DNA from: a virus
Length of the DNA stretch: 57,710 nucleotides
IMG/VR virus record: IMGVR_UViG_3300045988_104231
Direction: 5' to 3' (one strand)
This document shows positions 1 through 57,710 of the stretch, piece after piece. Below the pieces are notes generated by a model. It made no database searches and was not told the DNA's origin. It saw only the letters and a list, made by a program, of their open reading frames with translations. The position numbers were made by a program, and so were the translations under genes. Every line of letters starts with the position of its first letter. The first letter of the stretch is position 1.

Positions 1-50
1 CTAAGAGCCATACCCGGCGGGAGTCGTATCCTGCGGGGTATGGCTCTTTT
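1..50 (+). terminator. Hairpin part of promoter+leader-hairpin cassette 1 (promoter part at 57611-57641, across the junction)
   Basis: 13-bp stem AAGAGCCATACCC (3-15) / GGGTATGGCTCTT (36-48) followed by TT. Identical to 38403-38452. Ends 18 nt before the ATG at 66. Confidence 0.7.
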
Positions 51-65
51 GGCGTTTATAGGCGT

Positions 66-11277: not shown

Positions 11278-11595
11278 ATGAATAAGGTGGAAATTTTTTA
11301 CAAAAAAGTGATAGAGGCAGTCTGCAAGGAGTGCGGGACCGATCCGGTAATGATGTTTAGCAACAACAAGGAGAGGAACGTTGACGCTAGGGGAGTGGCT
11401 ATAACCACACTGGCCGATCTCAAGTTGAGCGACAATATCATATCCGATCTGACTGGAATGACGAGGCAAGCCGTCAACCGGATGCGTAACTTGTACCCGG
11501 ACAGGATAAGGAGGAGTTATTTCCTGAGAGGAGTATTAGAAAGCGTGAAGGAAAAATTAGCTATAGAAATCCTCTATATTCGTGAACTTTTTTGA
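11278..11595 (+). CDS. Small HTH protein (DnaA-C / sigma region-4-like), possible regulator
   Basis: RNVDARGVAITTLADLKLSDNIISDLTGMTRQAVNRMRN resembles a DnaA domain IV-type HTH. Stand-alone gene between terminators. Confidence 0.35.
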   Translation: MNKVEIFYKKVIEAVCKECGTDPVMMFSNNKERNVDARGVAITTLADLKLSDNIISDLTGMTRQAVNRMRNLYPDRIRRSYFLRGVLESVKEKLAIEILYIRELF

Positions 11596-11645: not shown

Positions 11646-11676
11646 TTTGGAGATAGTAGAATTATAGTTACCTTTG
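11646..11676 (+). promoter_or_regulatory. Bacteroidota sigma-A type promoter for hicAB
   Basis: TTTG (11646-11649), 19 nt, TACCTTTG (11669-11676). Matches the TTTG-N19-21-TAnnTTTG consensus. Confidence 0.65.
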
Positions 11677-12409: not shown

Positions 12410-12427
12410 AGCCTCCCTTAAAAGGTA

Positions 12428-12462
12428 AAAGCGTCGTCAATACAAATTGGCGGCGCTTTTTT
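12428..12462 (+). terminator. Intrinsic terminator after hicB
   Basis: AAGCGTCGTC / GGCGGCGCTT stem (two G-U pairs) followed by T7. Confidence 0.7.
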
Positions 12463-14547: not shown

Positions 14548-14865
14548 ATGGGAACATATAGCAGAAAACTGAGAGAGCTGATCGAGGAATTCGACGCCAT
14601 GGAAGACGAGGATATGTTGGAACTGGCGAAGGAGGCCTATAAGCTTGGCTGTAAGGAAGGAAAGCGGAAGGCCATGGAAGGCTATGGCAACCGTATGGAG
14701 GAAGACGATGACGATGAGTTCGAGGACGACGACGAGTTCCGTGAGATGTGGGAACGTGGCGGCTACGGCAACCGTGGCGGCGGTCGTGGATCATCTGGGG
14801 GAGGCTATGGCAATCGCCGTGGGGTGCCGGGCACCGGACGCTACTCGAGACGATATCGTAGATAA
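14548..14865 (+). CDS. Low-complexity acidic + RGG/GYGN-repeat protein
   Basis: EEDDDDEFEDDDEF followed by GGYGNRGGGRGSSGGGYGNRRG...RRYRR. Confidence 0.5.
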   Translation: MGTYSRKLRELIEEFDAMEDEDMLELAKEAYKLGCKEGKRKAMEGYGNRMEEDDDDEFEDDDEFREMWERGGYGNRGGGRGSSGGGYGNRRGVPGTGRYSRRYRR

Positions 14866-15320: not shown

Positions 15321-15502
15321 TGGGAGGCTGGGGCTACATACTGAGGATCTTGAAGGGAGAGTCCCCCAAGGACGTGCTGGCGAGTATGCCGGAGAAGGAT
15401 TTTGACAAGGTATCCGAGGTGGTGGGCAATCTCAAGGCAACCAATCTCACCCGGCAACAAAGGAGGAGGATAGAGCGGGAGTTCAAGACGGTAAGGAGAT
15501 GA
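15320..15502 (+). CDS. Hypothetical small basic protein
   Basis: ATG at 15320 overlaps the upstream TGA (TGATG). The track ORF 15275 start lies inside the previous gene. Confidence 0.45.
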   Translation: MGGWGYILRILKGESPKDVLASMPEKDFDKVSEVVGNLKATNLTRQQRRRIEREFKTVRR

Positions 15503-15969
15503 TACGACGGGATTACCATATCAAGAGATACGATTGGGTGATCCACGTGCTGTATAACGTCACCTGCCCGAGGACATCCGATATCATAGCCCTATTGAGG
15601 AGGGTCGGTTGCCCGGAAAGCAAGATACGGGAGGCTTATGGCAACGTAGGCTCCTGCAAGCTGGACGTGGGACTGACCTATTCTAATTACCGCAGCCGGG
15701 AATCCGTCATGGTGATAGGCCGGACCTCGTCCTATAGGGAGTTCGCTAATTCCCTGTTCCATGAGTGCCGCCATTTGACGGATCATATGTCCTTGGCCTT
15801 GGATATGGAGATAGGAGGGGAGCCTATCGCTTACTTGGCTGGCGATATAGGAGCCTTGATGTCCGATGAGATAAGGATGTTCATCTGCGATTGCCATTGT
15901 CACAGGAACGATATAAACGATGAGTTATGGGAAAGAAAAAAGAAGATAAAAAGAAAAAGGAATCCGTAA
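15499..15969 (+). CDS. Hypothetical protein with HExxH motif (possible Zn-metallopeptidase)
   Basis: SLFHECRHLTDH motif plus a CDCHCH cluster. ATGA overlap with the upstream gene. Confidence 0.4.
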   Translation: MIRRDYHIKRYDWVIHVLYNVTCPRTSDIIALLRRVGCPESKIREAYGNVGSCKLDVGLTYSNYRSRESVMVIGRTSSYREFANSLFHECRHLTDHMSLALDMEIGGEPIAYLAGDIGALMSDEIRMFICDCHCHRNDINDELWERKKKIKRKRNP

Positions 15970-16061
15970 GACGGGAGATAGACCGCCTCACGGATTCCTT
16001 GGATTTCGAGCCTATCAACTTCCATGAGGTGATGGCCCGGATACGGCACTTGATGTGCCTG

Positions 16062-30995: not shown

Positions 30996-31607
30996 TTATT
31001 CGATCTCGATAATCTCGAATTTTCCTTTCTTTATATATATCTTATGATTGTAGTAATCTTTGACTATTCCACGATCGGAAACTGTATTTATGTTTCCAGC
31101 GCAATCCTCGACATATGAGTTATTGCAAGCCTCGACCGTGGCAGAGTTGTAAGCCTCGACCGTGGCAGAGTCGTAAGCCTTGACCGTGGCAGAGTCGTAA
31201 GCCTTGACCGTGGCAGAGTTGTAAGCCTCGACCGTGGCAGAGTCGTAAGCCTCGACCGTGGCAGAGTCGTAAGCCTTGACCGTGGCATAGCCGCAAGCCT
31301 TGACCGTGGCATAGCCGCAAGCCTTGACCGTGGCATAGCCGCAAGCAAATGATTCAGTATCAGAGGCGTGTTCTTTTCTTGTGTAAATGCCAGCTTCGGT
31401 TAATTCCTCCTCAGTAAAGTTTTCTTCTAGGTAATTTGCGTCAATCATCTTGGACGTACTCAAGACCCAATACCAATTATCGGTTATAGCTTTCAGCAAG
31501 TCTTGTTTGCTTTTTGCGTTTAACCCCATACTGTATCCATCTTGGCAAGCGTGATGTTTTTTAGCCCGTTCAAGCAGATCTTTTTTTAATTCTTCGAATG
31601 TCTTCAT
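30996..31607 (-). CDS. Octapeptide-repeat protein (A-[YC]-[GDN]-[YS]-A-T-V-[KE] x about 10)
   Basis: 203-aa ORF. The repeat is encoded by a 24-bp tandem array. Confidence 0.65.
   Translation of the reverse strand: MKTFEELKKDLLERAKKHHACQDGYSMGLNAKSKQDLLKAITDNWYWVLSTSKMIDANYLEENFTEEELTEAGIYTRKEHASDTESFACGYATVKACGYATVKACGYATVKAYDSATVEAYDSATVEAYNSATVKAYDSATVKAYDSATVEAYNSATVEACNNSYVEDCAGNINTVSDRGIVKDYYNHKIYIKKGKFEIIEIE
31125..31346. repeat. 24-bp tandem repeat, about 9 copies, in-frame within the CDS
   Basis: The GCCT[CT]GACCGTGGCA[GT]AG[TC][TC]G[TC]AA unit is read repeatedly on the plus strand. Confidence 0.9.
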
Positions 31608-32097: not shown

Positions 32098-32172
32098 TGC
32101 TCCCTGCCGGGCTTGAACCGGCGACCTCTCGCTTATGAGGCGAATGCTCTCGACCAACTGAGCTAAGGGAGC
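32098..32172 (-). tRNA. tRNA, anticodon CAT (Met, or Ile2 if lysidine-modified)
   Basis: Perfect 75-nt cloverleaf: GCTCCCT TA GCTC AGTTGGTCGA GAGC A TTCGC CTCATAA GCGAG AGGTC GCCGG TTCAAGC CCGGC AGGGAGC A. Confidence 0.9.
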
Positions 32173-33212: not shown

Positions 33213-33284
33213 TAGCCCCACCGGTAATCGAAACCGGATATCTCCTTTAGGGGAGGAGCGCTCTATCCGTTGAGCTATGGGGCT
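33213..33284 (-). tRNA. tRNA-Arg (anticodon CCT), with C at position 33
   Basis: 72-nt cloverleaf: AGCCCCA TA GCTC AACGGATA GAGC G CTCCT CCCCTAA AGGAG ATAT CCGGT TTCGATT ACCGG TGGGGCT A. Confidence 0.8.
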
Positions 33285-38348: not shown

Positions 38349-38460
38349 TTTGATGTTTATCCGAATATTGTTATATTTGCGGTAACATAAAAATAAAGAA
38401 ATTAGAGCCTAAGAGCCATACCCGGCGGGAGTCGTATCCTGCGGGGTATGGCTCTTTTTA
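38349..38460 (+). promoter_or_regulatory. Promoter + leader terminator-hairpin cassette 2 (ahead of portal)
   Basis: TTTG 38349-38352, 19 nt, TATATTTG 38372-38379. Hairpin arms 38411-38423 / 38444-38456 followed by TTTTT. ATG at 38471. Confidence 0.7.
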
Positions 38461-45170: not shown

Positions 45171-45767
45171 ATGGCGAATATATACACGACATGCGACGAG
45201 ATACCCTTATGCAAGTTCATCGAGATGTACAAGGGAAATCTTAACGCCCTTATAAAAGGAGGGAGGACCAAGCCCACCGATGGGGAGTTAAGGAAAGCGG
45301 CGATGGGGCTTATCGACGAGTATTCCGTTATAACCGGGAACAAGAATATCGCTATCGAGATAGAGGATCGGTCAAGGGTGGTGGATTGCAATATCAAGCT
45401 TATCCTGTTGGAGTCAGCGGATCATTTGATAGACGCTATGATGTACGCTGATGCTTCGGATATTCTTGGCAGGGTAGGTATCCGCATGCCGGAGGAGCCG
45501 GGAGAGCAAGATCTGATCGTCGCTAAAAAGAGAATCCAGTCCAAGATGTCACAGGTGAAATATAGCCTGAGCGTTCTGGATAGGAACAAGTCTAAGGTGG
45601 TAGACCCCAAGGATAAAGATTTCACCCGTGAGAGAATGATCGTGTCCACCTATTTCAAGATGCGTATCGACCCAGACACGTTCACCGCGGCTGAGTACGG
45701 GAATATGATAAGGATTATGTTTAACCAATTAGAGGACATGAAGAATTATGGCGGGAAACGAGACTAA
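45171..45767 (+). CDS. Candidate tail assembly chaperone (function from position only)
   Basis: 198-aa ORF immediately upstream of, and overlapping, the tape-measure gene. Confidence 0.4.
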   Translation: MANIYTTCDEIPLCKFIEMYKGNLNALIKGGRTKPTDGELRKAAMGLIDEYSVITGNKNIAIEIEDRSRVVDCNIKLILLESADHLIDAMMYADASDILGRVGIRMPEEPGEQDLIVAKKRIQSKMSQVKYSLSVLDRNKSKVVDPKDKDFTRERMIVSTYFKMRIDPDTFTAAEYGNMIRIMFNQLEDMKNYGGKRD

Positions 45768-48700
45768 GATCACTGATATAGTAGGGAAAGAGGCGTTTGA
45801 TCAACTGGAGCGTCTGGATAGGAAATTAGCGGATACGCAGAATGTCTATATCGGGTTGGTAAAAGAGATAGGGAAAGGGTTGACGATAAATCCCTCAAGC
45901 TTGTCAGAGTTGAACGCCAAGATCGAGGAGTACAAGAAAAATGTATCAGCGCTTAAAAGCACGATTGACACTCTCAATAAGACCAATGACCAGTACAAGA
46001 GAAAGATTGATGAACTGATAGAGGTTAACAAGAGATATGCGGAAGCGGCTGGGAGAGTTCAGAATAGTTTAGATCAATCATCCTCTTCCATAGCCAAGGA
46101 ATCAAACGCTATCTCGGAGAACATGAAAGCCAAGCAGCAAGAGGTTGTCATAAGTCAGGAATTGAAGGGACTCATTGACCATACATTGGGATCTAGGGAG
46201 GAGAATATACGCAGGGTCGCTCAAGAAAGGACGATATTGGCCCAACTATCCAAGGAGAAAAGCCAATTGAATAAAATGGAGAAAAGCGGGGCTATCTCAA
46301 CTAAAGATGCCGTGCAAAAGAGGCAGGATCTGGTAAGGTCTGAATTGCTTCATCGAGAATCCTTGAGAGAGCTGTTGAACATTCTTACGAATGAGACAAA
46401 AATGATCAACTCGGCCAACGATAGTTATCAAGAGCAATCGTTGCAATTGGAGAGGCTGAGAAAGGCGTATCGGATGCTTTCCACGGAAGCCGCTAACAGC
46501 AAGTTAGGGGTAGAGTTACAAAAGAATATAGCGGCTTTGGACACTCAGGTAAAATCTGTTGATAAAAGTCTGGGACAGCATCAGAGAAACGTGGGTAATT
46601 ATGTCTCCACTTGGGATGGAATGGGAAACGCAATCAATCAATTAACCCGTGAGTTTCCAGCATTCTCGGTATCGCTCCAGACCGGATTCCTCGCTATCTC
46701 TAACAATATCCCTATATTGGTCGACCAAATATCTCGGATAAGGAAGGAGAACGCCGCCTTACGTGAGGAGGGACTGAAAGGTGTTCCCGTATGGAAGCAA
46801 ATAGCTAAGTCCGCTTTGTCTTGGAATACCTTGTTGTCGGTTGGTATAACTCTACTTACCGTATATGGTAAGGATATCTTTGAGTGGGGTAAAAACTTAT
46901 TGTCATCCTCTAGCTCGGCTAAGGCCGCTTCGGAAGCCCAGAGAGACTTGAATTCATCCACCGGGGATTATGCCAAGGCTTTAAAGAACTCGACATCATC
47001 ATATGGGGAGAATCTTGTAACATTACGCAACTTACAAGCGGAATGGAATAATTTAGGAGATAATCTCAATAAGCAGAAGCAATTTATCATTGATAACGCC
47101 TCTGAGTTTAAGAAATTAGATGTGTCAGTTACGGATGTTAATGACGCTGAGAATCTGCTAGTAGATAATACGGATGCTTTTGTTAAAGCAATGGCTTTGA
47201 GAGCGCAAGCAACGGCTGCGCAAAAATTAGCTCAAGAAAAATATGCTGAGGCTTTACAAAAAAGGATTGAAGCCGAAAATCTACAAAAAAAAGCAGATGA
47301 GGCAAGAGAAAAAGGGCAATATGCGGCTACGGCTGTTATGCAAGATACTAGATTTGGCGTAAAATCAGTGAAAGAACTTGCTGAGGAGAATGCGAAGGCT
47401 ATAGAAGTGGATGTTAAATCTTTGAATGATCAAGCTGATGCTCTTGATGAGGCAGGATTCGCTTATTTCAATTATAACAAAAAGCAGATGGAAGCCGCAA
47501 GGAGTGAATTAGAGAGCGCAGGTATAAGAGAATCCTCTAACGAGGAGAAACTTAAACGACAGCAGGAGCAAATAGAACGAGAGGCCAAGCGTAGGGAGAA
47601 ATTAGAGATGGAGGCCGAACGGAATATTCAGGAGGATCGTCTTAATGTGATGGATGAGGGGTATAAGAAAGACCGTCTTCTCTTGGAACAATCTTTCCAG
47701 AAACGGATAGATGACGTAAAGACGAAAGGCGTAAGGGTTAATGAGCAAATCGAGGCTATTGAGGCTGAGAGAAGCAAGAGGTTGGCGGAATTCGACCGTA
47801 AGATCTCGGAGCAAAGGGCTAATGAGGAGGCTCAAAATCGTCTTGCGATTGCAGAAAAGGGAAGTTTGCAAGAGCTTGACGCTCGCTTGGATATATTGCA
47901 ACTACAAAAGGATAAAGAATTAAGAGAGGCGGACAAAACAGGCCAAGACAGGGCGTTGATAGAGGAAAAGTATCTAAAACTAATAGAGAATCTATATAAT
48001 GATTACGGAAAACGTCTTATGTCTACGGAGCAATCTCAGAACGAGATACTCCTTTCTCAAAGACAGATAGAGATAAACGAAGAGCTTAATGCCTTGACTA
48101 AACAATATGAGCAAGGTATTATCAAGAAAAAAGAGTATGAGAAACAGAAATCGGATCTGGAGCATCAGTATGCTATGGAGTCTTTACAAAGTCAATTAAG
48201 TATACTTGAATCAAATCTGTATTTGTTTGAAGGCGATGAGAGGCTAGAGAAAGAGAAGGAGATCGCTCGCCTCCGTGTTCAGTTATCGAAAGAGACCAGC
48301 GATAAAATCATAGAGGATGCCAAACGAGAGGAAGAGGAGCGAAAAAAAGTAGAACAGGCTAAAAAGCGCTTGATACAAGAATCGATCTCTGCTATCATAT
48401 CAATCGGTAATTCATTATTCCAGCGTCAAATAGATAATGTAGATGCGGAAATAGAGGCCAACCAAGAGGAGTATGACGCTAAGGTTGAGACTATAGACGC
48501 TCTTGCCGAGAAAGATATAATAACGACAGAGGAGGCCGAGGCCCGCAAGCGTGCGGCGGAGGAAGAGACCAGCCGCAAGAACAAGGAACTGGAGAAGAAA
48601 AAAGCTGAGTTGCAGACTAGACAGGCTAAGTTCCAGAAGTCTATAGATATAGCTCAGACTATTGCGGCCACAGCGCAAGCGATAATGGTAGCTTACAAAG

Positions 48701-49170
48701 ATGCGGGACCTATCGCTGGAGCTATCTTTGCGGCGATGATAGCGGCTACCGGAGCCGTGCAACTAGCCACGATCATAGCCCAGCCCATCCCCAAATACGC
48801 CCATGGTACCGACAATCACCCCGGCGGTCTGGCTATCGTTGGCGATGGAGGCCGTAGCGAGGCGGTACTGGTAGGCGATAAGGCGTACATTACCCCGGAT
48901 AAGCCCACCCTGCTGTCATTGCCTGCGGGAGCCGAGGTCGTTCCGGATCTCAATGATCCGGCCTTCCTTAGCCGCTTCGTGGATAACACGTATTGGCTTA
49001 CCCATAACAAGAAAGGCGAGCCGGTTCAGATCGTCAATAATTTCGATGCTGAAGGGATAATAAGGGCTAATAATGAGATAAAAAAAGAGATAGGCAAGCT
49101 ATCTAAAACCATATCCAAGGGTAGCAAGAACATCGATTTCGAGAATTACAAGAGATCGAGGATGAATTGA
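45748..49170 (+). CDS. Tail tape-measure protein
   Basis: 1,140 aa, overwhelmingly coiled-coil, with internal hydrophobic segments (FLAISNNIPILV, LLSVGITLLTV, AGAIFAAMIAATGAVQLATIIA). Confidence 0.85.
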   Translation: MAGNETKITDIVGKEAFDQLERLDRKLADTQNVYIGLVKEIGKGLTINPSSLSELNAKIEEYKKNVSALKSTIDTLNKTNDQYKRKIDELIEVNKRYAEAAGRVQNSLDQSSSSIAKESNAISENMKAKQQEVVISQELKGLIDHTLGSREENIRRVAQERTILAQLSKEKSQLNKMEKSGAISTKDAVQKRQDLVRSELLHRESLRELLNILTNETKMINSANDSYQEQSLQLERLRKAYRMLSTEAANSKLGVELQKNIAALDTQVKSVDKSLGQHQRNVGNYVSTWDGMGNAINQLTREFPAFSVSLQTGFLAISNNIPILVDQISRIRKENAALREEGLKGVPVWKQIAKSALSWNTLLSVGITLLTVYGKDIFEWGKNLLSSSSSAKAASEAQRDLNSSTGDYAKALKNSTSSYGENLVTLRNLQAEWNNLGDNLNKQKQFIIDNASEFKKLDVSVTDVNDAENLLVDNTDAFVKAMALRAQATAAQKLAQEKYAEALQKRIEAENLQKKADEAREKGQYAATAVMQDTRFGVKSVKELAEENAKAIEVDVKSLNDQADALDEAGFAYFNYNKKQMEAARSELESAGIRESSNEEKLKRQQEQIEREAKRREKLEMEAERNIQEDRLNVMDEGYKKDRLLLEQSFQKRIDDVKTKGVRVNEQIEAIEAERSKRLAEFDRKISEQRANEEAQNRLAIAEKGSLQELDARLDILQLQKDKELREADKTGQDRALIEEKYLKLIENLYNDYGKRLMSTEQSQNEILLSQRQIEINEELNALTKQYEQGIIKKKEYEKQKSDLEHQYAMESLQSQLSILESNLYLFEGDERLEKEKEIARLRVQLSKETSDKIIEDAKREEEERKKVEQAKKRLIQESISAIISIGNSLFQRQIDNVDAEIEANQEEYDAKVETIDALAEKDIITTEEAEARKRAAEEETSRKNKELEKKKAELQTRQAKFQKSIDIAQTIAATAQAIMVAYKDAGPIAGAIFAAMIAATGAVQLATIIAQPIPKYAHGTDNHPGGLAIVGDGGRSEAVLVGDKAYITPDKPTLLSLPAGAEVVPDLNDPAFLSRFVDNTYWLTHNKKGEPVQIVNNFDAEGIIRANNEIKKEIGKLSKTISKGSKNIDFENYKRSRMN

Positions 49171-49178
49171 GCGTAAAA

Positions 49179-49285
49179 CTTGCTTTTCTTATTCTTTCTA
49201 GTTATATTTGCTGGACATATAAGAAGACAGTAGAGCCTAAGAGCCATACCCAATAGAGTCACGTCTATGGGGTATGGCTCTTTTT
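49179..49285 (+). promoter_or_regulatory. Promoter + leader terminator-hairpin cassette 3 (opens the accessory island)
   Basis: CTTG 49179-49182, 20 nt, TATATTTG 49203-49210. Hairpin arms 49239-49251 / 49270-49282 have the same sequence as cassettes 1 and 2 but a different loop. Followed by T5. Confidence 0.65.
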
Positions 49286-49492
49286 GTTTTTACTGGTCAG
49301 CCTACCACGACAGGCTAGGAAGATTTTGGGCGACAGCGGTCGCTAACAGCCTCCTTGATACGATGTGTTGTGGCTCGTGTCGGGGAGGCTTTTTCATTAA
49401 GAGGTGCCAAAGTAATCAAAATAACAAAGTCGTTTTGATCTTGTGGCTAAAATTGCGGGAGAAAATATTTTGAACAATTAAAATTTTAAGAT

Positions 49493-49816
49493 ATGGAAGC
49501 AATTAAAATTTTTGAGAACGATCGTTTCGGTGAAGTGAGAGTAGCCGGGACTAATGAGAACCCTTTGTTCTGCTTGGTAGATATATGCAAGGCGGTCGAT
49601 ATAGCGAATAGCAGAAACGTGAAGAACAGGTTAGATGAAGATGACGTCCATCTGGTGGACATCATAGATAGTTTAGGTAGAACCCAACAAGCGGTATTTG
49701 TATCAGAAGCCGGGATGTATGATGCGGTATTAAAAAGCGATAGCCCAAAAGCTAGACCCTTCTCTCGTTGGATAACACACGAGGTTCTCCCTTCCATCCG
49801 TAAACATGGGGCGTAA
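49493..49816 (+). CDS. Stand-alone Bro-N domain protein (duplicate of the N-terminus of the 16886-17683 gene)
   Basis: 107 aa. Residues 9-101 are identical to the Bro/KilAC protein. Confidence 0.8.
   Translation: MEAIKIFENDRFGEVRVAGTNENPLFCLVDICKAVDIANSRNVKNRLDEDDVHLVDIIDSLGRTQQAVFVSEAGMYDAVLKSDSPKARPFSRWITHEVLPSIRKHGA
49515..49794. repeat. Right copy of the 280-bp perfect inverted repeat
   Basis: Reverse complement of 17382-17661. Confidence 0.9.
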
Positions 49817-49860
49817 ATCAAGCAATATAGAATATTTTTAATAGCTAAAAACTTAATAAT

Positions 49861-50601
49861 ATGGATAGTTTAGTATTTAAAGGCAATAATGGGCAAGTTG
49901 TTACTAATAGCTTGCTAGTAGCGGAGAAGTTTGGGAAAAGACATGCGGATGTAATTCGCTCAATCGAAAATTTACTAAAATCCTCTGATGAAGAACTGAA
50001 CGCAAAAATGCGTTTAGCTTTTGTATCAAACACTTATGAGGATTCTACCGGGAAAAGTAATCCTGTATACATTATGAATAGAAAAGGATTCTCTATCCTT
50101 GTTATGGGGTATAACGGGATTAAGGCTCTAAGGTTTAAGAATGATTTTTATGACGCTTTCGAAGAAATGGAGAAAGCGTTGAAAGAGCAAAGCAAACCTC
50201 TTTCATCCGCACAGATGTTTGCCATGCAAGCTAACATCAACTTGGAATATGAGAACAGGATATCCAATGTGGAAAAACGAATAGAAGCGATAGAACAAGA
50301 ACGAGAAGAAAATGGAAAACTCCTTTTGGCTATTCCTGTTTCAACGGAAAAGATACCGGAAATGAGTTTAAGAGATAAGATCAGACAGATGGTTAATAGA
50401 TACTCTTCCGCCCATAATGTGAAACAACAGGATGTTTGGCGCAAGATATACGATCAATTGTACTATCTATATCATATATCTATTCGTAGCTATAAGAAGA
50501 AAAACGGAGAGTCTAATTTGGATATCGCTGAGAAGCATCGTTTTATTGAGTATATCTACAATATTATCTCCAATATGATCAGAGAGAAAGGGGTTGCTTG
50601 A
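49861..50601 (+). CDS. Rha-family phage regulatory protein
   Basis: VVTNSLLVAEKFGKRHADVIRSIENLL...YIMNRKGFSILVMGYNG. Confidence 0.8.
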   Translation: MDSLVFKGNNGQVVTNSLLVAEKFGKRHADVIRSIENLLKSSDEELNAKMRLAFVSNTYEDSTGKSNPVYIMNRKGFSILVMGYNGIKALRFKNDFYDAFEEMEKALKEQSKPLSSAQMFAMQANINLEYENRISNVEKRIEAIEQEREENGKLLLAIPVSTEKIPEMSLRDKIRQMVNRYSSAHNVKQQDVWRKIYDQLYYLYHISIRSYKKKNGESNLDIAEKHRFIEYIYNIISNMIREKGVA

Positions 50602-50679
50602 TTATTATGGTTGCTCAAACAAAATATAGACATGATTTGGTTTAGTTTTCATAATCCTCCCTCATGTCGTGAGACAGCA

Positions 50680-50726
50680 AGGGGGATAAAAAATCCCCTC
50701 CAGAGCCTTTTGGATGGAGGGGATTT
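50680..50726 (-). terminator. Terminator for the LRR gene, located between convergent genes
   Basis: 12-bp stem AAATCCCCTCCA / TGGAGGGGATTT. On the minus strand it is followed by TTTT. Confidence 0.6.
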
Positions 50727-50735
50727 GAATTGGGT

Positions 50736-51323
50736 TTATAGCGAGATCTTGAATCTCTCTTTTCCGCATTCAATGATGTATTTGCCTTTTGGAAGGTTTA
50801 TACGGGTATCTTGACCATTGGATTTACCTTGATATCTCATGATTCCTTTGAAATCGTATACTCTAATATCAGTATTTTTGTCTATGTTTTTTAATATTAA
50901 ATATTTACCTATTCTTGAAATGGAAATTTCATGATAATCCTCATTAATAGATTGAATAGATACAGGAGAAGATGATAGGTGTTTTATATTATAATCTTTC
51001 CATAGATCGTGTTGAGCATATTCTTGAAAAAGTTCATCAGGAACATAAACATTTAATTCTTCATTCCAAATGTTTATCGAATTAGGATATATGAATACAG
51101 GATTCGATGATTTCAAGTACAAATTATCTATTTGCGTATCTATTGCTTCTTGTTCTATCTCCTCTAAAGTAGAAGGTAATATTATATTTCTAGTATGTTT
51201 TAAGTTGAAAAAAGCATGTTTTCTTATTGTCTTAATGTCTTCTGGTACTTGGCAAATTTTTTGGTTGGAAGCATTTGCGTATATAATGACATTTTTTTTC
51301 TTCATTTGATATAAGACATCCAT
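50736..51323 (-). CDS. C-terminal part of BspA-like LRR protein, ending in a T9SS C-terminal sorting domain
   Basis: LRR_5-like IPEDIKTIRKHAFFNLKHTRNIILPSTLEEIEQEAI. The tail DIRVYDFKGIMRYQGKSNGQDTRINLPKGKYIIECGKERFKISL fits the Por secretion tail pattern. Confidence 0.6.
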   Translation of the reverse strand: MDVLYQMKKKNVIIYANASNQKICQVPEDIKTIRKHAFFNLKHTRNIILPSTLEEIEQEAIDTQIDNLYLKSSNPVFIYPNSINIWNEELNVYVPDELFQEYAQHDLWKDYNIKHLSSSPVSIQSINEDYHEISISRIGKYLILKNIDKNTDIRVYDFKGIMRYQGKSNGQDTRINLPKGKYIIECGKERFKISL

Positions 51324-52149
51324 TTATAGATTCCAAAAATGGATTTTCTTTGGAAACGGTTATTTCTTTAAGGTCATATCCGCACGACAATCCTCCTTCT
51401 CCGATGTATCTTAATTTTTTTCCGATGTCTATTCTTTCAATTTTACTTAATCCAAATATCCAATTACCAAGCTCTTCCGTACTATCAGGTATACTAATAT
51501 ATTTTAAAGGACAATCCCAAAACGCATTATCGCCTATATAAGTTACTTTGCTGGGGATTTCTATTTTCGTGAGATTTTTACAACCGGAAAAAGCTTGCAT
51601 AGGTATATCTTGTATATTATCAGATAATCTAATATTTGTCAATGATTCAAGACTGTAAAAAACATGTTTGTCAATAAATTGAACGCTATCATACATGTAT
51701 ACACTTTGAAGTTTATCGCAATGCGATAATGCCCATTCAGAAATACCAACAAGGCTCTTTGGTAGTATAATCTTCTTTAATTTATCACATTCGCTAAATG
51801 CGTTATTTCCAAGTACGTCATTCTCCTCTATGCAGCAAAGATGATTTTCATTAATATAGTATCCATCTCCTCCCTTTCTTATATGAGCATCACTCATGTC
51901 TAATATGGCTAATTTCCCTTCTCTATTATCTATTCCGAATTGGCTTTTCCCCAACATATATCTGAGTGTGGCTATATCATCTGAGTTAATATATCCATTT
52001 AAAGTTAGATTAGTGATTTTAGAAATACTATCTCCTAATATTTTCGACAATGAACCGGCCTTATCTACTTCGATGAATGTTGAATCTTGATTATTCCCAA
52101 ATACATAGTTGGATAAAGAAATAAATAAAAAAAGTAATATTTTCCTCAT
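51232..52149 (-). CDS. N-terminal part of BspA-like leucine-rich-repeat protein with signal peptide
   Basis: MRKILLFLFISLSNYVFG signal peptide. Repeated ..I.IP.SV..I...AF..C..L.. units. The frame is lost at an A8 tract (plus-strand T8 at 51292-51299). Confidence 0.7.
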   Translation of the reverse strand: MRKILLFLFISLSNYVFGNNQDSTFIEVDKAGSLSKILGDSISKITNLTLNGYINSDDIATLRYMLGKSQFGIDNREGKLAILDMSDAHIRKGGDGYYINENHLCCIEENDVLGNNAFSECDKLKKIILPKSLVGISEWALSHCDKLQSVYMYDSVQFIDKHVFYSLESLTNIRLSDNIQDIPMQAFSGCKNLTKIEIPSKVTYIGDNAFWDCPLKYISIPDSTEELGNWIFGLSKIERIDIGKKLRYIGEGGLSCGYDLKEITVSKENPFLESINGCLISNEEKKCHYIRKCFQPKNLPSTRRH

Positions 52150-52178
52150 GACTTGATTTAGTTTAATTAATGATGAGA

Positions 52179-52210
52179 CAAAGGTAGATAATAGTGTTAA
52201 CAAAAGCAAA
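52179..52210 (-). promoter_or_regulatory. Bacteroidota-type promoter of the LRR gene
   Basis: Minus strand TTTG (52210-52207), 20 nt, TACCTTTG (52186-52179). Confidence 0.65.
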
Positions 52211-52273
52211 TAGTATAGAAGGGAATTACATGTTCGATAACATATTTCTTAATTTAAGTAGTACAAACCTTGT

Positions 52274-52552
52274 CTACCTCTTTTTTCCGAACAACTCGGA
52301 ATGACTACCAATTCTAAGCAAGTCGATTATTTCTCCGTCAATCCAAATAAGAAGAAAATCCCCTTCTATATGGCACTCCATACAACCTTTATACTCACCT
52401 TTCAACATGTGAGGTTTGTATTCTTGTGGAATCGGATGGTCATTTATAAGCAGATTTGCGATATATTCAAAAGCTGCGATTTTTTTGGGGAATTTCTGAA
52501 TACGTTTGAAATCTTTCTTAAACTGGCTTGTTGGGTGTAATTTCTTTTTCAC
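52274..52552 (-). CDS. yafQ: YafQ/RelE-family toxin
   Basis: FKKDFKRI...HMLKGEYKGCMECHIEGDFLLIW..DGEIIDLLRIGSHSELF. Confidence 0.85.
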   Translation of the reverse strand: MKKKLHPTSQFKKDFKRIQKFPKKIAAFEYIANLLINDHPIPQEYKPHMLKGEYKGCMECHIEGDFLLIWIDGEIIDLLRIGSHSELFGKKR

Positions 52553-52791
52553 TTCATTAATTCCTCCATCAAACTATCCACGCTGTCGAACGTTTCTTTA
52601 TTCTTGGTCGTGCGTGCTTCCCTTATAGCCGCTATCGTTTCCTCGTTTGGCTCGGAGTATACAGCGTCCATCAAGGTGCTCTCTACAAAATTATTCAAAC
52701 TCCTGTTCGCTTTCTTGGCTTGTTCCTGCAAGACTTGCAACAAGTCCTCACGTAAACGGAACGATGTTTGCTTTCTTATTACTGCTTCCAT
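52549..52791 (-). CDS. Ribbon-helix-helix antitoxin (DinJ/RelB-like partner)
   Basis: TSFRLREDLLQVLQEQAKKANRSLNNFVESTL RHH motif. 4-nt overlap with the toxin gene. Confidence 0.75.
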   Translation of the reverse strand: MEAVIRKQTSFRLREDLLQVLQEQAKKANRSLNNFVESTLMDAVYSEPNEETIAAIREARTTKNKETFDSVDSLMEELMK

Positions 52792-52816
52792 ATTACTTAT
52801 GTATTATATTGTATCG

Positions 52817-52847
52817 CAAAGGTAATGTATTGTATGCATAAAACAAA
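52817..52847 (-). promoter_or_regulatory. Bacteroidota-type promoter of the antitoxin-toxin operon
   Basis: Minus strand TTTG (52847-52844), 19 nt, TACCTTTG (52824-52817). Confidence 0.65.
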
Positions 52848-52883
52848 CTTTCATGATTTTTATTTAGAGGATTGCAGGTTATA

Positions 52884-53162
52884 TCATTCCATCTTAATCT
52901 TAACATCCACTTCAACAGGTATTGGTTTTTGACAATGGGGGCAAATGATCGTTTTGCTACTATTGATTTCATCAGAAAAGAAATCCCCGACTTTACACCC
53001 TATCACATTTGCTATCTTTTGAAGTGTTTCCACCGTTGGGTTTTTATTAATTGATTGAGATAAAGCACCTCGTGTTATAGGCTTACCGTTTTTGCTTTCC
53101 CATTCCGCAGCTATACGTTCGATAGTATAACCTTGAGCCTTAATAATTGATTTTATGTCCAT
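52884..53162 (-). CDS. XRE-family HTH repressor-like protein with C-terminal CxxC element
   Basis: ITRGALSQSINKNPTVETLQKIANVIGCKVGDFF HTH, then ICPHCQKPI. Confidence 0.7.
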   Translation of the reverse strand: MDIKSIIKAQGYTIERIAAEWESKNGKPITRGALSQSINKNPTVETLQKIANVIGCKVGDFFSDEINSSKTIICPHCQKPIPVEVDVKIKME

Positions 53163-53287
53163 CAGATGAATGTTTAGTTATTACTAACGGCAAAGATAAA
53201 TATAAAAATGATATATGATTAGGAATAACTATTCGAAATATAGTTTTTGATATATTTTAATTAAACATTGGACTTGTGTTAAAGATT

Positions 53288-53338
53288 AGTTAAACCTAAC
53301 GATCTACTTGTGTTTCGTTAGGTTTAACTATACATTTG
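53288..53338. promoter_or_regulatory. 14-bp perfect inverted repeat (candidate operator) abutting a rightward -7 box
   Basis: AGTTAAACCTAACG (53288-53301) / CGTTAGGTTTAACT (53316-53329), followed by TACATTTG at 53331-53338. A minus-strand TATCTTTG box at 53196-53189 lies ahead of the XRE gene. Confidence 0.55.
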
Positions 53339-53364
53339 CATCATCAAAATAAAACAACAGTACA

Positions 53365-53628
53365 ATGGCAACACAGAAATACAACAAGAGCGAGATCATG
53401 AAAGACGCATGGAGATTATTCAGACTTTACCGAAAATTCTCTTGGTCTTTTGGCAAGTGCCTTTCTATAGCATGGGATAATGCCAAGATAGAGATAAAAA
53501 ATAATGAGGCCAAGGCCAAGAGATTGGCAGAGGAAGAAGCTAGACGCATCGAGTATCGCAAGCATGTTGTCTTATCTCATGTCGGTATGGCTAGCCTTTA
53601 CGGTAACAGGGTTTATTCGGGTGATTGA
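53365..53628 (+). CDS. Hypothetical protein (Cro-position gene of the divergent pair)
   Basis: 87-aa ORF. Confidence 0.45.
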   Translation: MATQKYNKSEIMKDAWRLFRLYRKFSWSFGKCLSIAWDNAKIEIKNNEAKAKRLAEEEARRIEYRKHVVLSHVGMASLYGNRVYSGD

Positions 53629-53654
53629 TAACTATACATTAATAATATAAGGAT

Positions 53655-53915
53655 ATGGAAACGATAGAAGTATTGAAGAATGTGCAAAGGATTGCGTTGG
53701 AGTGTATGATCGGAAGGAAACCGGTACATATAAACGTAGGCGTAATGCCGGAGACGGGCGGTTTATGCGTCACCGTACAGGACAGATTTCACGAGGTGGT
53801 CTACATGGAGATATTCAATGACTGGATGCCGGATCACAAGGAATGGAATAAAAAGACCTACGATAGATTCATGAGCGTAATTAGCGACATGACTTGCGTA
53901 AGGCTTGCGGGATAA
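53655..53915 (+). CDS. Hypothetical protein
   Basis: 86-aa ORF. Confidence 0.45.
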   Translation: METIEVLKNVQRIALECMIGRKPVHINVGVMPETGGLCVTVQDRFHEVVYMEIFNDWMPDHKEWNKKTYDRFMSVISDMTCVRLAG

Positions 53916-54226
53916 CTCGAACGACGGGGAGAGGATCGGAAGTAGATGCCCCTCCGGTAATACGGCCGGAGGGTTTGGTGGAGTTATTTCAATGATAATT
54001 AAATGATTGCATGAAATAATAAGAAATAGGATGATTTTAGTATCTGATGGTATTATTGTTTATCTATCTGAAATACATTGATATAGAGTGTTAATAAAAT
54101 ACATTATTTAGAATGGTTCTAAATTAATGCGATTTTAGGTACCGTTATCTGTCCTTATCTATCCGTTTTGTTTTGTGCTTAAAATAAGGATGTTGTTTGA
54201 TTATTTTTTAATTATAAACTTTGCGC

Positions 54227-54421
54227 ATGGGAATACCAGAATTAAGCGGGAATAAGTTCTCCGCTATAGAGCAAAAGGAAGTCTTGGTCAAGTTGATGGA
54301 CTTTGACGGGGACAAGGAATTATGGATTCACTCGGAACTTGGTGGCAACACCATGACATTCGGGATGGAGGAAGCAAGGCGGTTAAGGGATTTCTTCAAC
54401 AGTCTCGATCTAAGGGACTAG
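54227..54421 (+). CDS. Hypothetical protein
   Basis: ATG at 54227 preferred to the TTG at 54221. Confidence 0.4.
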   Translation: MGIPELSGNKFSAIEQKEVLVKLMDFDGDKELWIHSELGGNTMTFGMEEARRLRDFFNSLDLRD

Positions 54422-54435
54422 AAGGATGGCCTTGT

Positions 54436-54460
54436 CGGGGTTCGATTCCCCGGCCACTAC
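54436..54460 (+). other. tRNA 3'-half-like fragment (T-arm plus 3' acceptor strand)
   Basis: CGGGG TTCGATT CCCCG GCCACTA C. No matching 5' acceptor strand is found upstream. Confidence 0.4.
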
Positions 54461-54549
54461 AATCAGTCAAAGTAAATCCCCGAAAGCGGAAGTGACTGAG
54501 CCGCTAACGGGGATATAATTAGTAATTCAAACAAAATTAAAACAAAGGT

Positions 54550-55173
54550 ATGAAAGATTTATCATTAAACAAAGAGACAATGAGTTCAATCGAAGTATCT
54601 GAACTTACAGGGAAACGTCATGATGCTATCTTGCGTGACATCAGAAACTTACTATGTCAAGGGGTAAACGCCCACAATTTTGTGGAGGTTGAATATGTAG
54701 ATAAAAAGGGAGAAGCAAGGCCTTGTTTCGAACTAACTAAGAAAGGATGCCTGATACTTGCTTCTGGGTATGACGCTAAACTTCGTGAAAAAATTATCGA
54801 TCGATGGGAAGAACTGGAACTGGACAAATCTCCGAAAACTTTATCCCCTGCCGAGATCATCCTCCAGCAATCTCGTCTTCTTGTTGAGAACGAGAGAAAG
54901 ATAAGAGAGCTAGAGGCGACAACCGTTAAACTTCAAAACGATCTTGAAGAGGTGAATCAGAGAACCACTGCAAACCTTAATCAATCCACCATTGTCGCTT
55001 ACGTTACTAGAAATAACATCAAGCTGGAAGTTACGAAATACGGTGCGATGGGACGAAAGGCTACATCTATTTGCAAGAAGCGAGGCATAGAGATCACCAA
55101 GATAAACGATGTTCGCTGGGGTATGGTAAGCGTTTATCCGGATAGCGTGCTGGACGAGGTGTTTAATAAGTAA
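54550..55173 (+). CDS. Second Rha-family phage regulatory protein
   Basis: MSSIEVSELTGKRHDAILRDIRNLL...ELTKKGCLILASGYDAKLREKIIDRWEELE. Confidence 0.8.
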   Translation: MKDLSLNKETMSSIEVSELTGKRHDAILRDIRNLLCQGVNAHNFVEVEYVDKKGEARPCFELTKKGCLILASGYDAKLREKIIDRWEELELDKSPKTLSPAEIILQQSRLLVENERKIRELEATTVKLQNDLEEVNQRTTANLNQSTIVAYVTRNNIKLEVTKYGAMGRKATSICKKRGIEITKINDVRWGMVSVYPDSVLDEVFNK

Positions 55174-55282: not shown

Positions 55283-55579
55283 ATGAAAGAGAACGAGATT
55301 AAAAGCATCGTCGTGAAAGCCGACGGTAACGAGATCAAGGTTGATCACGCTCATGAGTTGGTAATAGGGAGCTTGACCATAACCCCGGAAATGATGAGAG
55401 AGATAAAGAGTATGTCCACTTGCCTGTTCTCTAAGGATATGGACGATATGATAGATACGCTTATCAATTTGAGTTGCGAGGGTAATTACGAGGACGGGTA
55501 TATCATGGACAAGATGAGGGCCGTGTCATGCGTGAGGGACTTCTTGAGGGATATCGAGAAATCAAGATCAAGGGCTTGA
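55283..55579 (+). CDS. Hypothetical protein
   Basis: About 98-aa ORF. ATG at 55283. Confidence 0.45.
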   Translation: MKENEIKSIVVKADGNEIKVDHAHELVIGSLTITPEMMREIKSMSTCLFSKDMDDMIDTLINLSCEGNYEDGYIMDKMRAVSCVRDFLRDIEKSRSRA

Positions 55580-55662
55580 TATTACGCAGACAATAGTTAT
55601 CTTTGTGACAGAGCCAAAGAGCCGTACCGGAGACGTATTTGTCCCCGGGCGGCTCTTCTTAT
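55575..55662 (+). promoter_or_regulatory. Promoter + leader hairpin cassette 4 (diverged copy, closes the island and sits ahead of the 643-aa tail gene)
   Basis: CTTG 55575-55578, 19 nt, TATCTTTG 55598-55605. AGAGCCAAAGAGCC leader. Imperfect hairpin 55617-55657. ATG at 55673. Confidence 0.6.
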
Positions 55663-55672
55663 TTATAAGCGT

Positions 55673-57610: not shown

Positions 57611-57710
57611 TTTGACAATTGATCCTTATCCCCTATATTTGTAGGACATAACAAAAAAGAAATTAGAGCCTAAGAGCCATACCCGGCGGGAGTCGTATCC
57701 TGCGGGGTAT
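57611..57710 (+). promoter_or_regulatory. Promoter + leader hairpin cassette 1 (continues into nt 1-50)
   Basis: TTTG 57611-57614, 19 nt, TATATTTG 57634-57641, then AAAGAAATTAGAGCCTAAGAGCCATACCC... identical to cassette 2. Confidence 0.7.

Follow-up and report, generated by a model that had tools for sequence, protein, structure and literature searches.

In phage lambda, the constitutive host-type promoter PR' is followed within ~50-200 nt by the intrinsic terminator tR' and then by the late genes, and only a short RNA is made unless the Q antiterminator acts. Phage T7 promoters precede the RNase III sites R1.1, R3.8, R4.7, R6.5 and R13. In the morons of lambdoid phages a promoter stands before the gene and a terminator after it, and the stoperators of mycobacteriophage L5 are DNA sites for the repressor. 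To our knowledge, almost nothing is known about the timing of gene expression in phages of gut Bacteroidota.

The leaders of Bacteroides capsule operons carry a pause hairpin and an ops element, with UpxY (a NusG paralogue) encoded by the first gene; no termination was observed at these hairpins (PMC11685472). The consensus of the primary sigma factor of Bacteroidota (sigma-A, sigma-ABfr) consists of a -7 element TAnnTTTG (TAHHTTTG) and a -33 element TTTG ~19-21 nt before it (PMC7366714; PMC6847099). In Flavobacterium johnsoniae the -7 element occupies positions -12 to -5 and transcription starts 4-5 nt after it (PMC6847099); the transcription start sites (TSS) predicted below were placed by this 4-5 nt spacing.

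The DNA studied here, referred to as the window, is a 57,710-nt stretch from a virus (IMG/VR record IMGVR_UViG_3300045988_104231). An end-to-end comparison has shown that its ends share 41 nt (57670-57710 is the same as 1-41), so the genome is circular with a length of 57,669 bp. Genes were mapped with PHROGs and Pfam. The structural block on the + strand includes the small terminase (35630), large terminase (36297), portal (38471), protease, major capsid (40603) and tape measure (45748-49170) genes. It is followed by an accessory island (49.3-55.6 kb, partly on the - strand) coding for a Bro-N protein, two Rha proteins, BspA-type LRR proteins, a YafQ toxin and a Cro/CI-type HTH protein. Distal tail genes start at 55673, 66, 953 and 6018, lysis genes extend up to ~11 kb, and replication genes lie on the - strand between 35 kb and 16 kb.

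A first-pass annotation had reported four copies of a promoter-hairpin cassette in this genome, and all of the elements that it listed are indeed present at the positions given below. Each cassette consists of a sigma-A promoter, a purine-rich leader, the motif AGAGCC-N-AAGAGCC, a 41-46-nt hairpin and a U-rich tail, usually with an ATG 14-17 nt further on. The pattern AGAGCCNAAGAGCC / AGAGCC-N-AAGAGCC was found exactly four times, with 0 mismatches. As the two ends of the window overlap, the cassette lying across them (D) is one copy, not two, and the 57,669-bp genome has exactly four. The break at cassette D, within a repeat common to A, is presumably an assembly artefact.

Cassette A is located in front of the portal gene. 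Its promoter (38349-38379, + strand) comprises the -33 TTTG at 38349-38352, a 19-nt spacer and the -7 element TATATTTG at 38372-38379, with the TSS predicted at A38384. The upstream copy of AGAGCC (38404-38409, + strand) is single-stranded, lies 2 nt before the stem and is invariant in all family members. The hairpin and U-run (38411-38459, + strand; hairpin 38411-38456) are built of the arms AAGAGCCATACCC/GGGTATGGCTCTT, an inner 6-bp stem and a 6-nt loop, and the portal ATG follows at 38471. This hairpin folds with -39.9 kcal/mol (z = -6.0), scores 90.5 bits with a covariance model (E = 1.2e-24) and was also listed by a terminator scan.

Cassette B follows the tape measure gene at the entrance of the accessory island, and its promoter begins 8 nt past the tape-measure stop (49170). 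The promoter (49179-49210, + strand) has CTTG at 49179-49182 and the -7 element TATATTTG at 49203-49210, with the predicted TSS at A49215. The rest of the element (49232-49285, + strand) includes AGAGCC at 49232-49237, the hairpin at 49239-49282 (-39.1 kcal/mol, z = -5.5; 67.7 bits with the covariance model) and a U-run. Cassette C is placed at the exit of the island, before the gene of a 643-aa tail protein. Its promoter (55575-55605, + strand) has CTTG at 55575-55578 and the -7 element TATCTTTG at 55598-55605, and the predicted TSS, A55610, is the first base of AGAGCC, which puts this copy into a short-leader class. Its element (55610-55672, + strand) consists of AGAGCC at 55610-55615, the hairpin at 55617-55657 (-28.3 kcal/mol, z = -3.9; 38.2 bits with the covariance model) and an interrupted U-rich tail CTTATTTAT ahead of the ATG at 55673.

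Cassette D precedes the gene of a 296-aa tail protein. The promoter (57611-57641, + strand) has TTTG at 57611-57614 and the -7 element TATATTTG at 57634-57641, with the predicted TSS at A57646. The 5' part of the element (57665-57710, + strand) holds AGAGCC at 57665-57670 and the hairpin from 57672 to 57710, which runs on across the circular junction at 42-48. In the other end of the window (1-65, + strand), where positions 1-41 duplicate 57670-57710, the whole hairpin is found at 3-48, followed by the U-run (47-50), a spacer and the ATG at 66.

A and D share 97% identity over 65 nt and 100% over 50 nt, loop included, positions 1-50 being the same as 38409-38458. B has the same arms as A with a different apical stem and loop. 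In C the arms have diverged with pairing kept, one of the changes being a compensatory replacement of A-U by G-C. The first-pass descriptions of the individual copies are right if copy 1 is taken to be the one at 38349, copy 2 at 57611, copy 3 at 49179 and copy 4 at 55575, which differs from the order of its coordinate list. A short fixed gap between hairpin and ATG had been given there as 15-18 nt; the gap is real, and the measured values (14, 15 and 17 nt) are slightly shorter. The island is, as had been proposed, bracketed by two copies (B at its entrance and C at its exit).

The four cassettes stand out clearly in the window. Searched with a covariance model built from the relatives described below, they matched with E-values from ~1e-24 to 6e-9. 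No further copy was found, the next matches (E = 0.013 for the first of them) being ordinary stand-alone terminators at 12418-12455 and 15950-16008. Compared with shuffled sequences, the hairpins of the four copies fold with -28 to -44 kcal/mol and z from -3.9 to -6.0. Only five + strand sites in the window match TTTG-N18-22-TAnnTTTG, and two of them are the promoters of A and D. In Rfam 15 the cassettes matched unrelated families far below threshold, a search with a relaxed E-value also gave nothing relevant, and only two tRNAs in the window attain the Rfam gathering score. Separately, the form of the cassette hairpin resembles that of the phage's own free-standing terminator at 12418-12455.

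Scanning of IMG/VR with exact patterns has found at least 117-120 loci, mostly in human-gut contigs of 30-70 kb, and all the DNA fetched contains at least 189 occurrences in at least 80 distinct contexts; early regions are barely covered by the fetched loci. Among the matches listed, the upstream sequences of the contexts form 15 unrelated clusters and the downstream gene starts 13. In 72 of 77 contexts the -7 box comes 10-60 nt after the end of an ORF that runs in the same direction, and in 69 of 80 the stem is followed, 8-27 nt later, by the start of an ORF with 50 codons or more, again among the matches listed. The other 11 of the 80 contexts, copy B among them, have no ORF start within 130-220 nt. 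Judged by these ORF predictions, the cassette is an intercistronic punctuation mark which always brings its own putative promoter.

When one genome per species was scanned, the motif was found at 25 loci, and only Parabacteroides hominis NSJ-79 and P. distasonis NM39_I3 contained the full element. The remaining 23 loci lack the hairpin and were judged to be chance matches, as expected for a 17-base pattern. The expected conservation of the element in related genomes is thus borne out both by the IMG/VR contigs and by these two Parabacteroides genomes. Since no other scanned species has the full element, the host of the phage is most likely a Parabacteroides. The P. hominis relative resides inside a 158-kb contig and may therefore be a prophage. 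In this relative, one copy of the cassette precedes Bro-N/Rha/KilA-like accessory genes, as copy B does. Punctuation of late genes, as originally proposed, therefore describes the portal and tail gene copies, and is too narrow for copy B and its P. hominis counterpart; the same applies to the labels "late promoter" and "late switch".

Searches for phages in GenBank gave little: megablast with 13 kb of the late region had no match, and tblastn with the capsid protein found only three unannotated human-faecal contigs with 44-47% identity. There appears to be no close cultured phage in GenBank. Phages with a portal protein 55% identical to that of our phage keep the AGAGCC motif, and their apical stem is completely different. 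At 42-50% portal identity the sigma-A promoter is followed by an unrelated structured leader of 105-145 nt, which ends in a GC hairpin (9-12 bp) with U5-U7 located 4-12 nt before the portal ATG. The predicted arrangement of promoter, leader and terminator has outlived its sequence. With the same scan none of these cassettes was detected in Bacteroides phage B40-8; they are therefore not a general feature of Bacteroides phages.

The suggestion that the promoters are of the host type holds for all four copies in this genome: TAnnTTTG is present in 4/4, combined with TTTG in A and D and with CTTG in B and C. Among the matches listed for the family, the TAnnTTTG box is present in every one of the 80 distinct contexts, and the -33 TTG in 77 of the 80 and in 14 of the 15 unrelated upstream sequences. 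As these boxes are kept across 15 unrelated upstream sequences, they are conserved for their own sake. The reported order of promoter, leader and terminator-shaped hairpin is accordingly conserved as a unit (80/80 contexts among the matches listed have the -7 box).

The distance between the box and the motif is bimodal, 3-7 nt in 23 contexts and 20-25 nt in 57, and both classes occur in this genome. In long-leader copies the predicted start is the A of a conserved (A/C)ATA(A/T), from which a purine-rich leader of 16-21 nt without an AUG extends to the motif; in short-leader copies, including C, transcription is predicted to start with the first A of AGAGCC. Within one genome the motif therefore begins either at +1 or at ~+17 to +21. 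No -7-like (TAnnTTTG) pause element was found in the purine-rich leaders. Attenuation through a leader peptide was considered too and ruled out for want of an AUG in the leader. The RNAs of A, B, C and D, if ended at the U-tract, are predicted to measure 76, 71, 51 and 74 nt.

Thirty-five hairpin variants with at least eight apical types were collected, and each of them folds into a single hairpin (-21 to -38 kcal/mol) with a stem of 17-20 bp, often containing a 1x1 internal loop, and a loop of 4-6 nt of varied sequence. In a model-guided alignment 96.2% of the cells are paired and 11 of the 19 pairs have changes on both sides. None of 500 shuffled controls attained the observed pairing values, and sliding the partners by 1-3 columns reduced pairing to at most 52%. 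This covariation shows the predicted hairpin structure to be under selection. The RNA of the + strand is the more stable one in 26 of the 35 variants and contains 49 G-U pairs versus 14 in the other strand, which indicates that the selected structure is the + strand RNA.

The seven basal pairs, AAGAGCC/GGCUCUU, and the upstream AGAGCC do not vary in the family. The search patterns account for part of this invariance, and the portal-anchored sample, gathered without those patterns, is the only unbiased one; the invariance is seen there as well. The initial claim that structure rather than just sequence is conserved is thus upheld by the covariation, while the basal 7 bp and the upstream AGAGCC are invariant in sequence too, which points to sequence-specific recognition.

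These data bear on the notion that the cassettes act as DNA, as repressor stoperators, boundaries of recombination modules or packaging sites, or else constitute a family of small-RNA genes. Like the L5 stoperators, the motif is repeated in one orientation between genes; it marks mosaic junctions, joining 15 upstream and 13 downstream sequence clusters among the matches listed, and a promoter with a terminator formally defines RNAs of 51-76 nt. However, a DNA operator is a fixed duplex site that has no need of intrastrand pairing, whereas here compensatory changes in 11 of 19 pairs and the strand asymmetry of G-U pairs speak for pairing in RNA, and the distance from the direct to the inverted copy changes with the length of the hairpin. 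Mosaic junctions would be an expected by-product of any 60-80-nt repeat, four pac sites would make no sense, and the short-leader RNAs with only 8 free nt would offer a poor small-RNA seed. We regard a role of this sort as barely probable.

The hairpins look like intrinsic terminators, with a GC-rich stem, a U-tract and an A-rich 5' flank. In A, B and D stems of 13+5/6 bp are followed by U4-U5, and most family types are alike in having four or five U right after the stem. In copy C and the short-leader type the U-tract is interrupted (CUCUUCUUAUUU), and their terminator scores are the lowest on an uncalibrated scale. The score used, of the d'Aubenton-Carafa type, was negative for lambda tR2; being uncalibrated, it serves for comparison only, and on this rough scale most types are at least level with the phage's stand-alone terminator at 12418-12455. 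No other terminator was found between the upstream stop codon and the cassette. As the cassettes lie 10-60 nt past a co-directional stop codon, their hairpins would be met by polymerases arriving from upstream as well. It had been noted that transcripts initiated at the cassette must cross their own hairpin; this is so, and it is equally true for transcripts of the upstream genes, since the cassettes are placed between co-directional genes.

The terminator reading has weak points. At 17-20 bp the stems are longer than one expects of an intrinsic terminator and are of a size found among RNase III substrates, the U-tract of the short-leader type is interrupted, and no gene of a known antiterminator was found among the 87 ORFs. 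The hairpin might instead be an element of RNA processing, stability or insulation, with polycistronic transcripts running through and the promoters adding flux. It would be cut by RNase III or block exonucleases, so that upstream mRNAs gain a protective 3' hairpin and downstream mRNAs a defined unstructured AU-rich start region, whose accessibility governs initiation in Bacteroidota, which do without Shine-Dalgarno pairing. The stem size and the frequent 1x1 internal loop agree with this, as do the poor U-tract of copy C, the intercistronic position (72/77 contexts) and the constrained distance to the ATG (69/80; both among the matches listed). T7 also puts RNase III sites directly after several of its promoters. 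Furthermore, translation initiation in Bacteroidota is tuned by mRNA structure (PMC6847099).

A processing site, however, needs no promoter, and the coupling to a promoter is complete (80/80 among the matches listed). U-rich tails are kept in all contexts, and the terminators of distant relatives (9-12 bp with U5-U7) are too short for RNase III. A structure blocking decay from the 5' end would be expected within a few nt of that end, whereas most leaders leave 25-30 nt single-stranded, and the invariant upstream AGAGCC is left unexplained. On balance we consider processing, stability or insulation unlikely, yet the most serious of the rival readings.

A terminator of the same form could also be leaky in a constitutive manner and work without any factor as a fixed-ratio insulator, which blocks most of the upstream transcription, passes a set fraction of its own output and so sets the ratios of head, tail and accessory products. 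The failure of the ORF scans to detect an antiterminator gene agrees with such a design, and the type and U-tract strength differ by gene (strong before the portal, weak before the 643-aa gene), which could set the pass-through. The invariance of the tandem AGAGCC and the basal stem against a covarying remainder would nevertheless have no explanation. A strong terminator 50-75 nt after a consensus promoter would be a wasteful way merely to attenuate, and if the P. hominis relative is a prophage, the lysogen would bear the cost of lysis and structural genes being expressed through leakage. This makes a factor-free insulator quite unlikely in our opinion.

The invariant 3' arm with its tail, GGCUCUUUUUA, contains GCUCUUU, which we take to be the boxA core of E. 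coli and lambda. One could imagine that the hairpin stabilises a pause, or marks a loading site, at which transcription is not ended and a host elongation factor is recruited, either a UpxY-type NusG paralogue or Nus factors binding the boxA-like GCUCUUU, so that the long operons are transcribed processively. The geometry is similar to that of the Bacteroides capsule leaders, where a pause hairpin and ops are followed by the start codon 9-42 nt further on (PMC11685472). On the other hand, a 13-bp stem sequesters the boxA-like segment, the leaders of distant relatives have no such motif, no NGN/KOW gene was found in the phage, and the stem reaches the U-tract as in terminators and unlike pause hairpins. 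We find this very unlikely.

The distance to the ATG hardly varies, which suggests that the cassette also, or instead, helps to shape the translation start region. In its pure form this would be a translational operator: a phage protein bound to AGAGCC or to the hairpin 14-17 nt before the ATG would repress or activate ribosome loading, in the way of the MS2 coat protein or T4 RegA. A sequence-invariant motif adjoining a variable stem, at a short and fixed distance from the ATG in most contexts, would suit such a site. Yet no ORF begins within 130-220 nt in 11 of the 80 contexts, copy B being one of them, and an operator requires no tie to a promoter or a U-tract, so we hold this to be highly improbable as the main function.

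The explanation that we prefer, with a confidence somewhat short of even, is that the cassette is a promoter-coupled intrinsic-terminator leader which closes the upstream unit and gates its own promoter, relief probably being provided by a factor that reads AGAGCC on the RNA. Each cassette would then be a cis-acting boundary of transcription units operating at the RNA level. Host RNA polymerase with the primary Bacteroidota sigma factor would start 4-5 nt after TAnnTTTG, copy either no leader (the class of copy C) or a purine-rich leader of 16-21 nt, and proceed into AGAGCC-N-AAGAGCC. The long GC-rich hairpin would be transcribed next, its 3' arm entering the U-rich tract in the shape of an intrinsic terminator. 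Polymerases coming from upstream would meet the same hairpin, so that the upstream unit is closed and the cassette's own promoter gated by a single structure. Bypass of the terminator would lead to expression of the genes behind the cassette.

We propose that bypass depends on a trans-acting factor, derived from the phage or from the host, which binds the tandem AGAGCC on the nascent RNA, where one copy lies outside the stem and the other forms its 5' base. By holding the base of the stem open or by modifying the polymerase, the bound factor would presumably prevent or undo stem closure next to the U-tract; without it, the cassettes would release RNAs of 51-76 nt. Such a bypass would account for the invariant tandem motif, its invariant partner GGCUCUU and the freely covarying apical stem. 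We favour a gate over a neutral hairpin because the leaders of distant relatives end in a terminator and because the pattern of conservation fits recognition of repeats on RNA.

The first-pass annotation had likened the cassettes to lambda PR'-tR' with its Q antiterminator. Its remark that a Q-like gene is missing is in line with our scans of the 87 ORFs with Pfam, PHROGs and NCBIfam, in which no Q, N, NusG/KOW, sigma or RNA-binding family was detected; no scanned ORF has an NGN or KOW domain. With no Q-like gene, a bimodal promoter-motif distance and no -7-like pause element, the likeness to lambda is one of logic only. A Q module has its DNA binding element at a fixed position relative to the promoter and a sigma-dependent pause element early in the transcribed region. 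A motif located at +1 or at ~+17 to +21 and the lack of a -7-like pause element make a DNA-level mechanism with Q-type loading unlikely, and the variable position of the motif together with the variable spacing of its copies argues that the putative factor acts on RNA rather than on DNA.

The two candidate factors named earlier found no backing: the stand-alone HTH protein (11278-11595) has only a faint DnaA-C-like match, and the RGG protein has no family match. PDB sequence searches with 15499-15969 and 11278-11595 came back empty. The product of 15499-15969 was rejected as an antiterminator, since its HExxH motif makes it look like a small metalloprotease. The phage also encodes small basic proteins, none of which has support as an N-like factor.

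We further speculate that Bacteroidota phages possess a new kind of antitermination, unrelated to Q, N and NusG paralogues, for which the cassettes serve as cis sites and in which a sequence-specific RNA-binding factor reads the tandem AGAGCC and switches on structural, lysis and accessory genes at four or more promoters; the distant portal leaders would then be sister systems with other specificities. This wider proposal we regard as rather doubtful. We found no prior description of the cassette in the literature. The motif is undescribed and its layout is multi-copy, and control by a promoter-proximal terminator or leader is known in kind.

The element is a compact, sequence-defined handle of 110-130 nt, available in many human-gut viral contigs and in Parabacteroides isolates. 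A purified B. fragilis RNA polymerase system exists (PMC11685472), so termination and its relief could be assayed directly, with the AGAGCC repeats serving as bait for the factor. Should the cassette prove to be a processing or insulation element, synthetic biology in Bacteroides would gain a part that can be used as it stands. Whichever reading holds, the element is a conserved RNA motif new to RNA family databases, and it should help to annotate transcription units in uncultured phages.

Among the described systems, morons and stoperators share with the cassettes a repeated, oriented punctuation of late operons in which accessory genes are set off by their own signals. They differ in that here the hairpin stands between promoter and gene and covaries as RNA does. 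In T7, a promoter, a long hairpin and a gene likewise succeed one another repeatedly over co-directional late genes, and both local and upstream transcripts meet the hairpin. The T7 sites, however, have no U-tracts and are not terminators, their coupling to promoters is not absolute, and T7 uses its own RNA polymerase. RNase III sites of the T7 type have ~20 bp or more, often with an internal loop, a size for which the 17-20-bp cassette stems are borderline. UpxY leaders belong to the same host phylum, and there too elongation depends on a hairpin in the leader, a few tens of nt ahead of the first start codon; the phage, in contrast, has no NusG paralogue, and UpxY recognises the non-template strand and upstream DNA. 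The put sites of HK022 work without a protein and consist of two adjacent stem-loops over ~70 nt immediately past the promoter, unlike the single hairpin seen in 35 of 35 variants. Lambda N and nut combine boxA and a boxB hairpin, which has a GNRA-like pentaloop, with an arginine-rich N protein; here the loops have 4-6 nt of varied sequence, and no N family was found.

In the HutP, TRAP/PyrR (in the opposite sense) and lambda N-boxB systems, repeats or a hairpin in the leader RNA are read by a protein that decides on terminator formation. No homologous protein was found here, and the cassette sequence is unrelated to NAG/UAG repeats, RAT and boxB. The tandem AGAGCC, of which one copy lies within the stem, nevertheless agrees with a likeness to these RNA-binding attenuators, the factor being hypothetical in our case. 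The overall layout, with a constitutive host-type promoter, a predicted intrinsic terminator and then the genes to be expressed, is that of PR'-tR'-Q. Lambda has one such site and reads it through Q, whereas this genome encodes no Q homologue that we could find, its motif stands at a variable distance from the start with no -7-like pause element and overlaps the terminator itself, and four or more cassettes are present per genome, some of them preceding accessory genes. If the cassettes are indeed gates, the lambda late switch would have a counterpart spread over several sites, in a phylum whose sigma factor differs and which makes no use of Shine-Dalgarno sequences.

About 200 nt downstream of cassette B, the promoter and leader hairpin unit that follows the tape-measure gene, are noncoding and very structured; together with the cassette, they fold at -84.6 kcal/mol (z = -8.2). 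Two small hairpins lie at 49286-49400, along with a second terminator-like hairpin (49349-49393) followed by T5. A 68-aa ORF (49267-49473) that starts inside the cassette B hairpin is probably not a real gene, and the next gene, coding for a Bro-N protein, begins at 49493. The structured stretch may represent a small RNA, or else serve the Bro-N gene as a long, regulated leader.

Bro-N opens the accessory island located between cassettes B and C (49493-55173), which also codes for two Rha regulators, BspA-type leucine-rich-repeat proteins and a YafQ-type toxin with its partner. An 87-aa island protein has a weak AcrIIA3-like match that falls below the cutoff (E = 2e-6), and one of 46 small ORFs scanned as one set matched a HicA-type toxin domain. 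The whole genome yielded no integrase, even though a relative is located in a 158-kb P. hominis contig. A minus-strand promoter of the island (54573-54543) matches the full consensus and is followed, within 54573-54475, by a hairpin (ATCCCCG...CGGGGAT) with a T-rich tail. The first long ORF past this promoter is a Cro/CI-type HTH gene (53162-52884, minus strand). It is possible that the promoter and hairpin unit (54573-54475) represents a small RNA or a regulated leader located within the island.

The plus-strand operon at 11.7-16 kb is driven by a predicted consensus promoter at 11646, without a hairpin. It includes the genes of a 105-aa protein (14548-14865) with an acidic N-terminal half and an RGG/RG-rich C-terminal tail, and of a 156-aa protein (15499-15969) that combines a HECRH (HExxH) motif with a CDCHCH cluster and has a KKKIKRKR tail; no family match was found for either. 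On the minus strand, a 203-aa ORF (30996-31607) contains at least nine copies of a 24-nt tandem repeat (31075-31362), 84-95% identical in the core, so that each unit encodes an 8-residue protein repeat. Two tRNA genes of the early region (32098-32172 and 33213-33284) are also located on the minus strand.

The 41-nt overlap between the window ends (1-41 and 57670-57710) shows that the assembly is circular. The break lies within cassette D, the copy in front of the 296-aa tail gene, inside a 65-nt repeat common to cassettes A and D, and we infer that it arose in assembly and does not mark an end of the genome.

In relatives with portals 42-50% identical (loci L174-L224 and L143), another conserved leader lies between the sigma-A promoter and the portal ATG, e.g., at about 2870-2986 in L213. 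It contains the hairpin CGUGU-[AAGW]-GCACG followed by AAC, in some cases surrounded by a closing helix, and a canonical terminator 3' of this hairpin, 4-12 nt ahead of the ATG. The same hairpin is found again behind other promoters in L143 and L144. The leader has no match in Rfam and looks like a second leader-control RNA family unrelated to the cassettes.

In the cassettes themselves, the 3' arm, which is invariant, forms together with its tail the sequence GGCUCUUUUUA (38450-38460, 49276-49286 and 42-52). This sequence includes the boxA core of E. coli and lambda, GCUCUUUA, and the boxA-like segment is buried in the stem.
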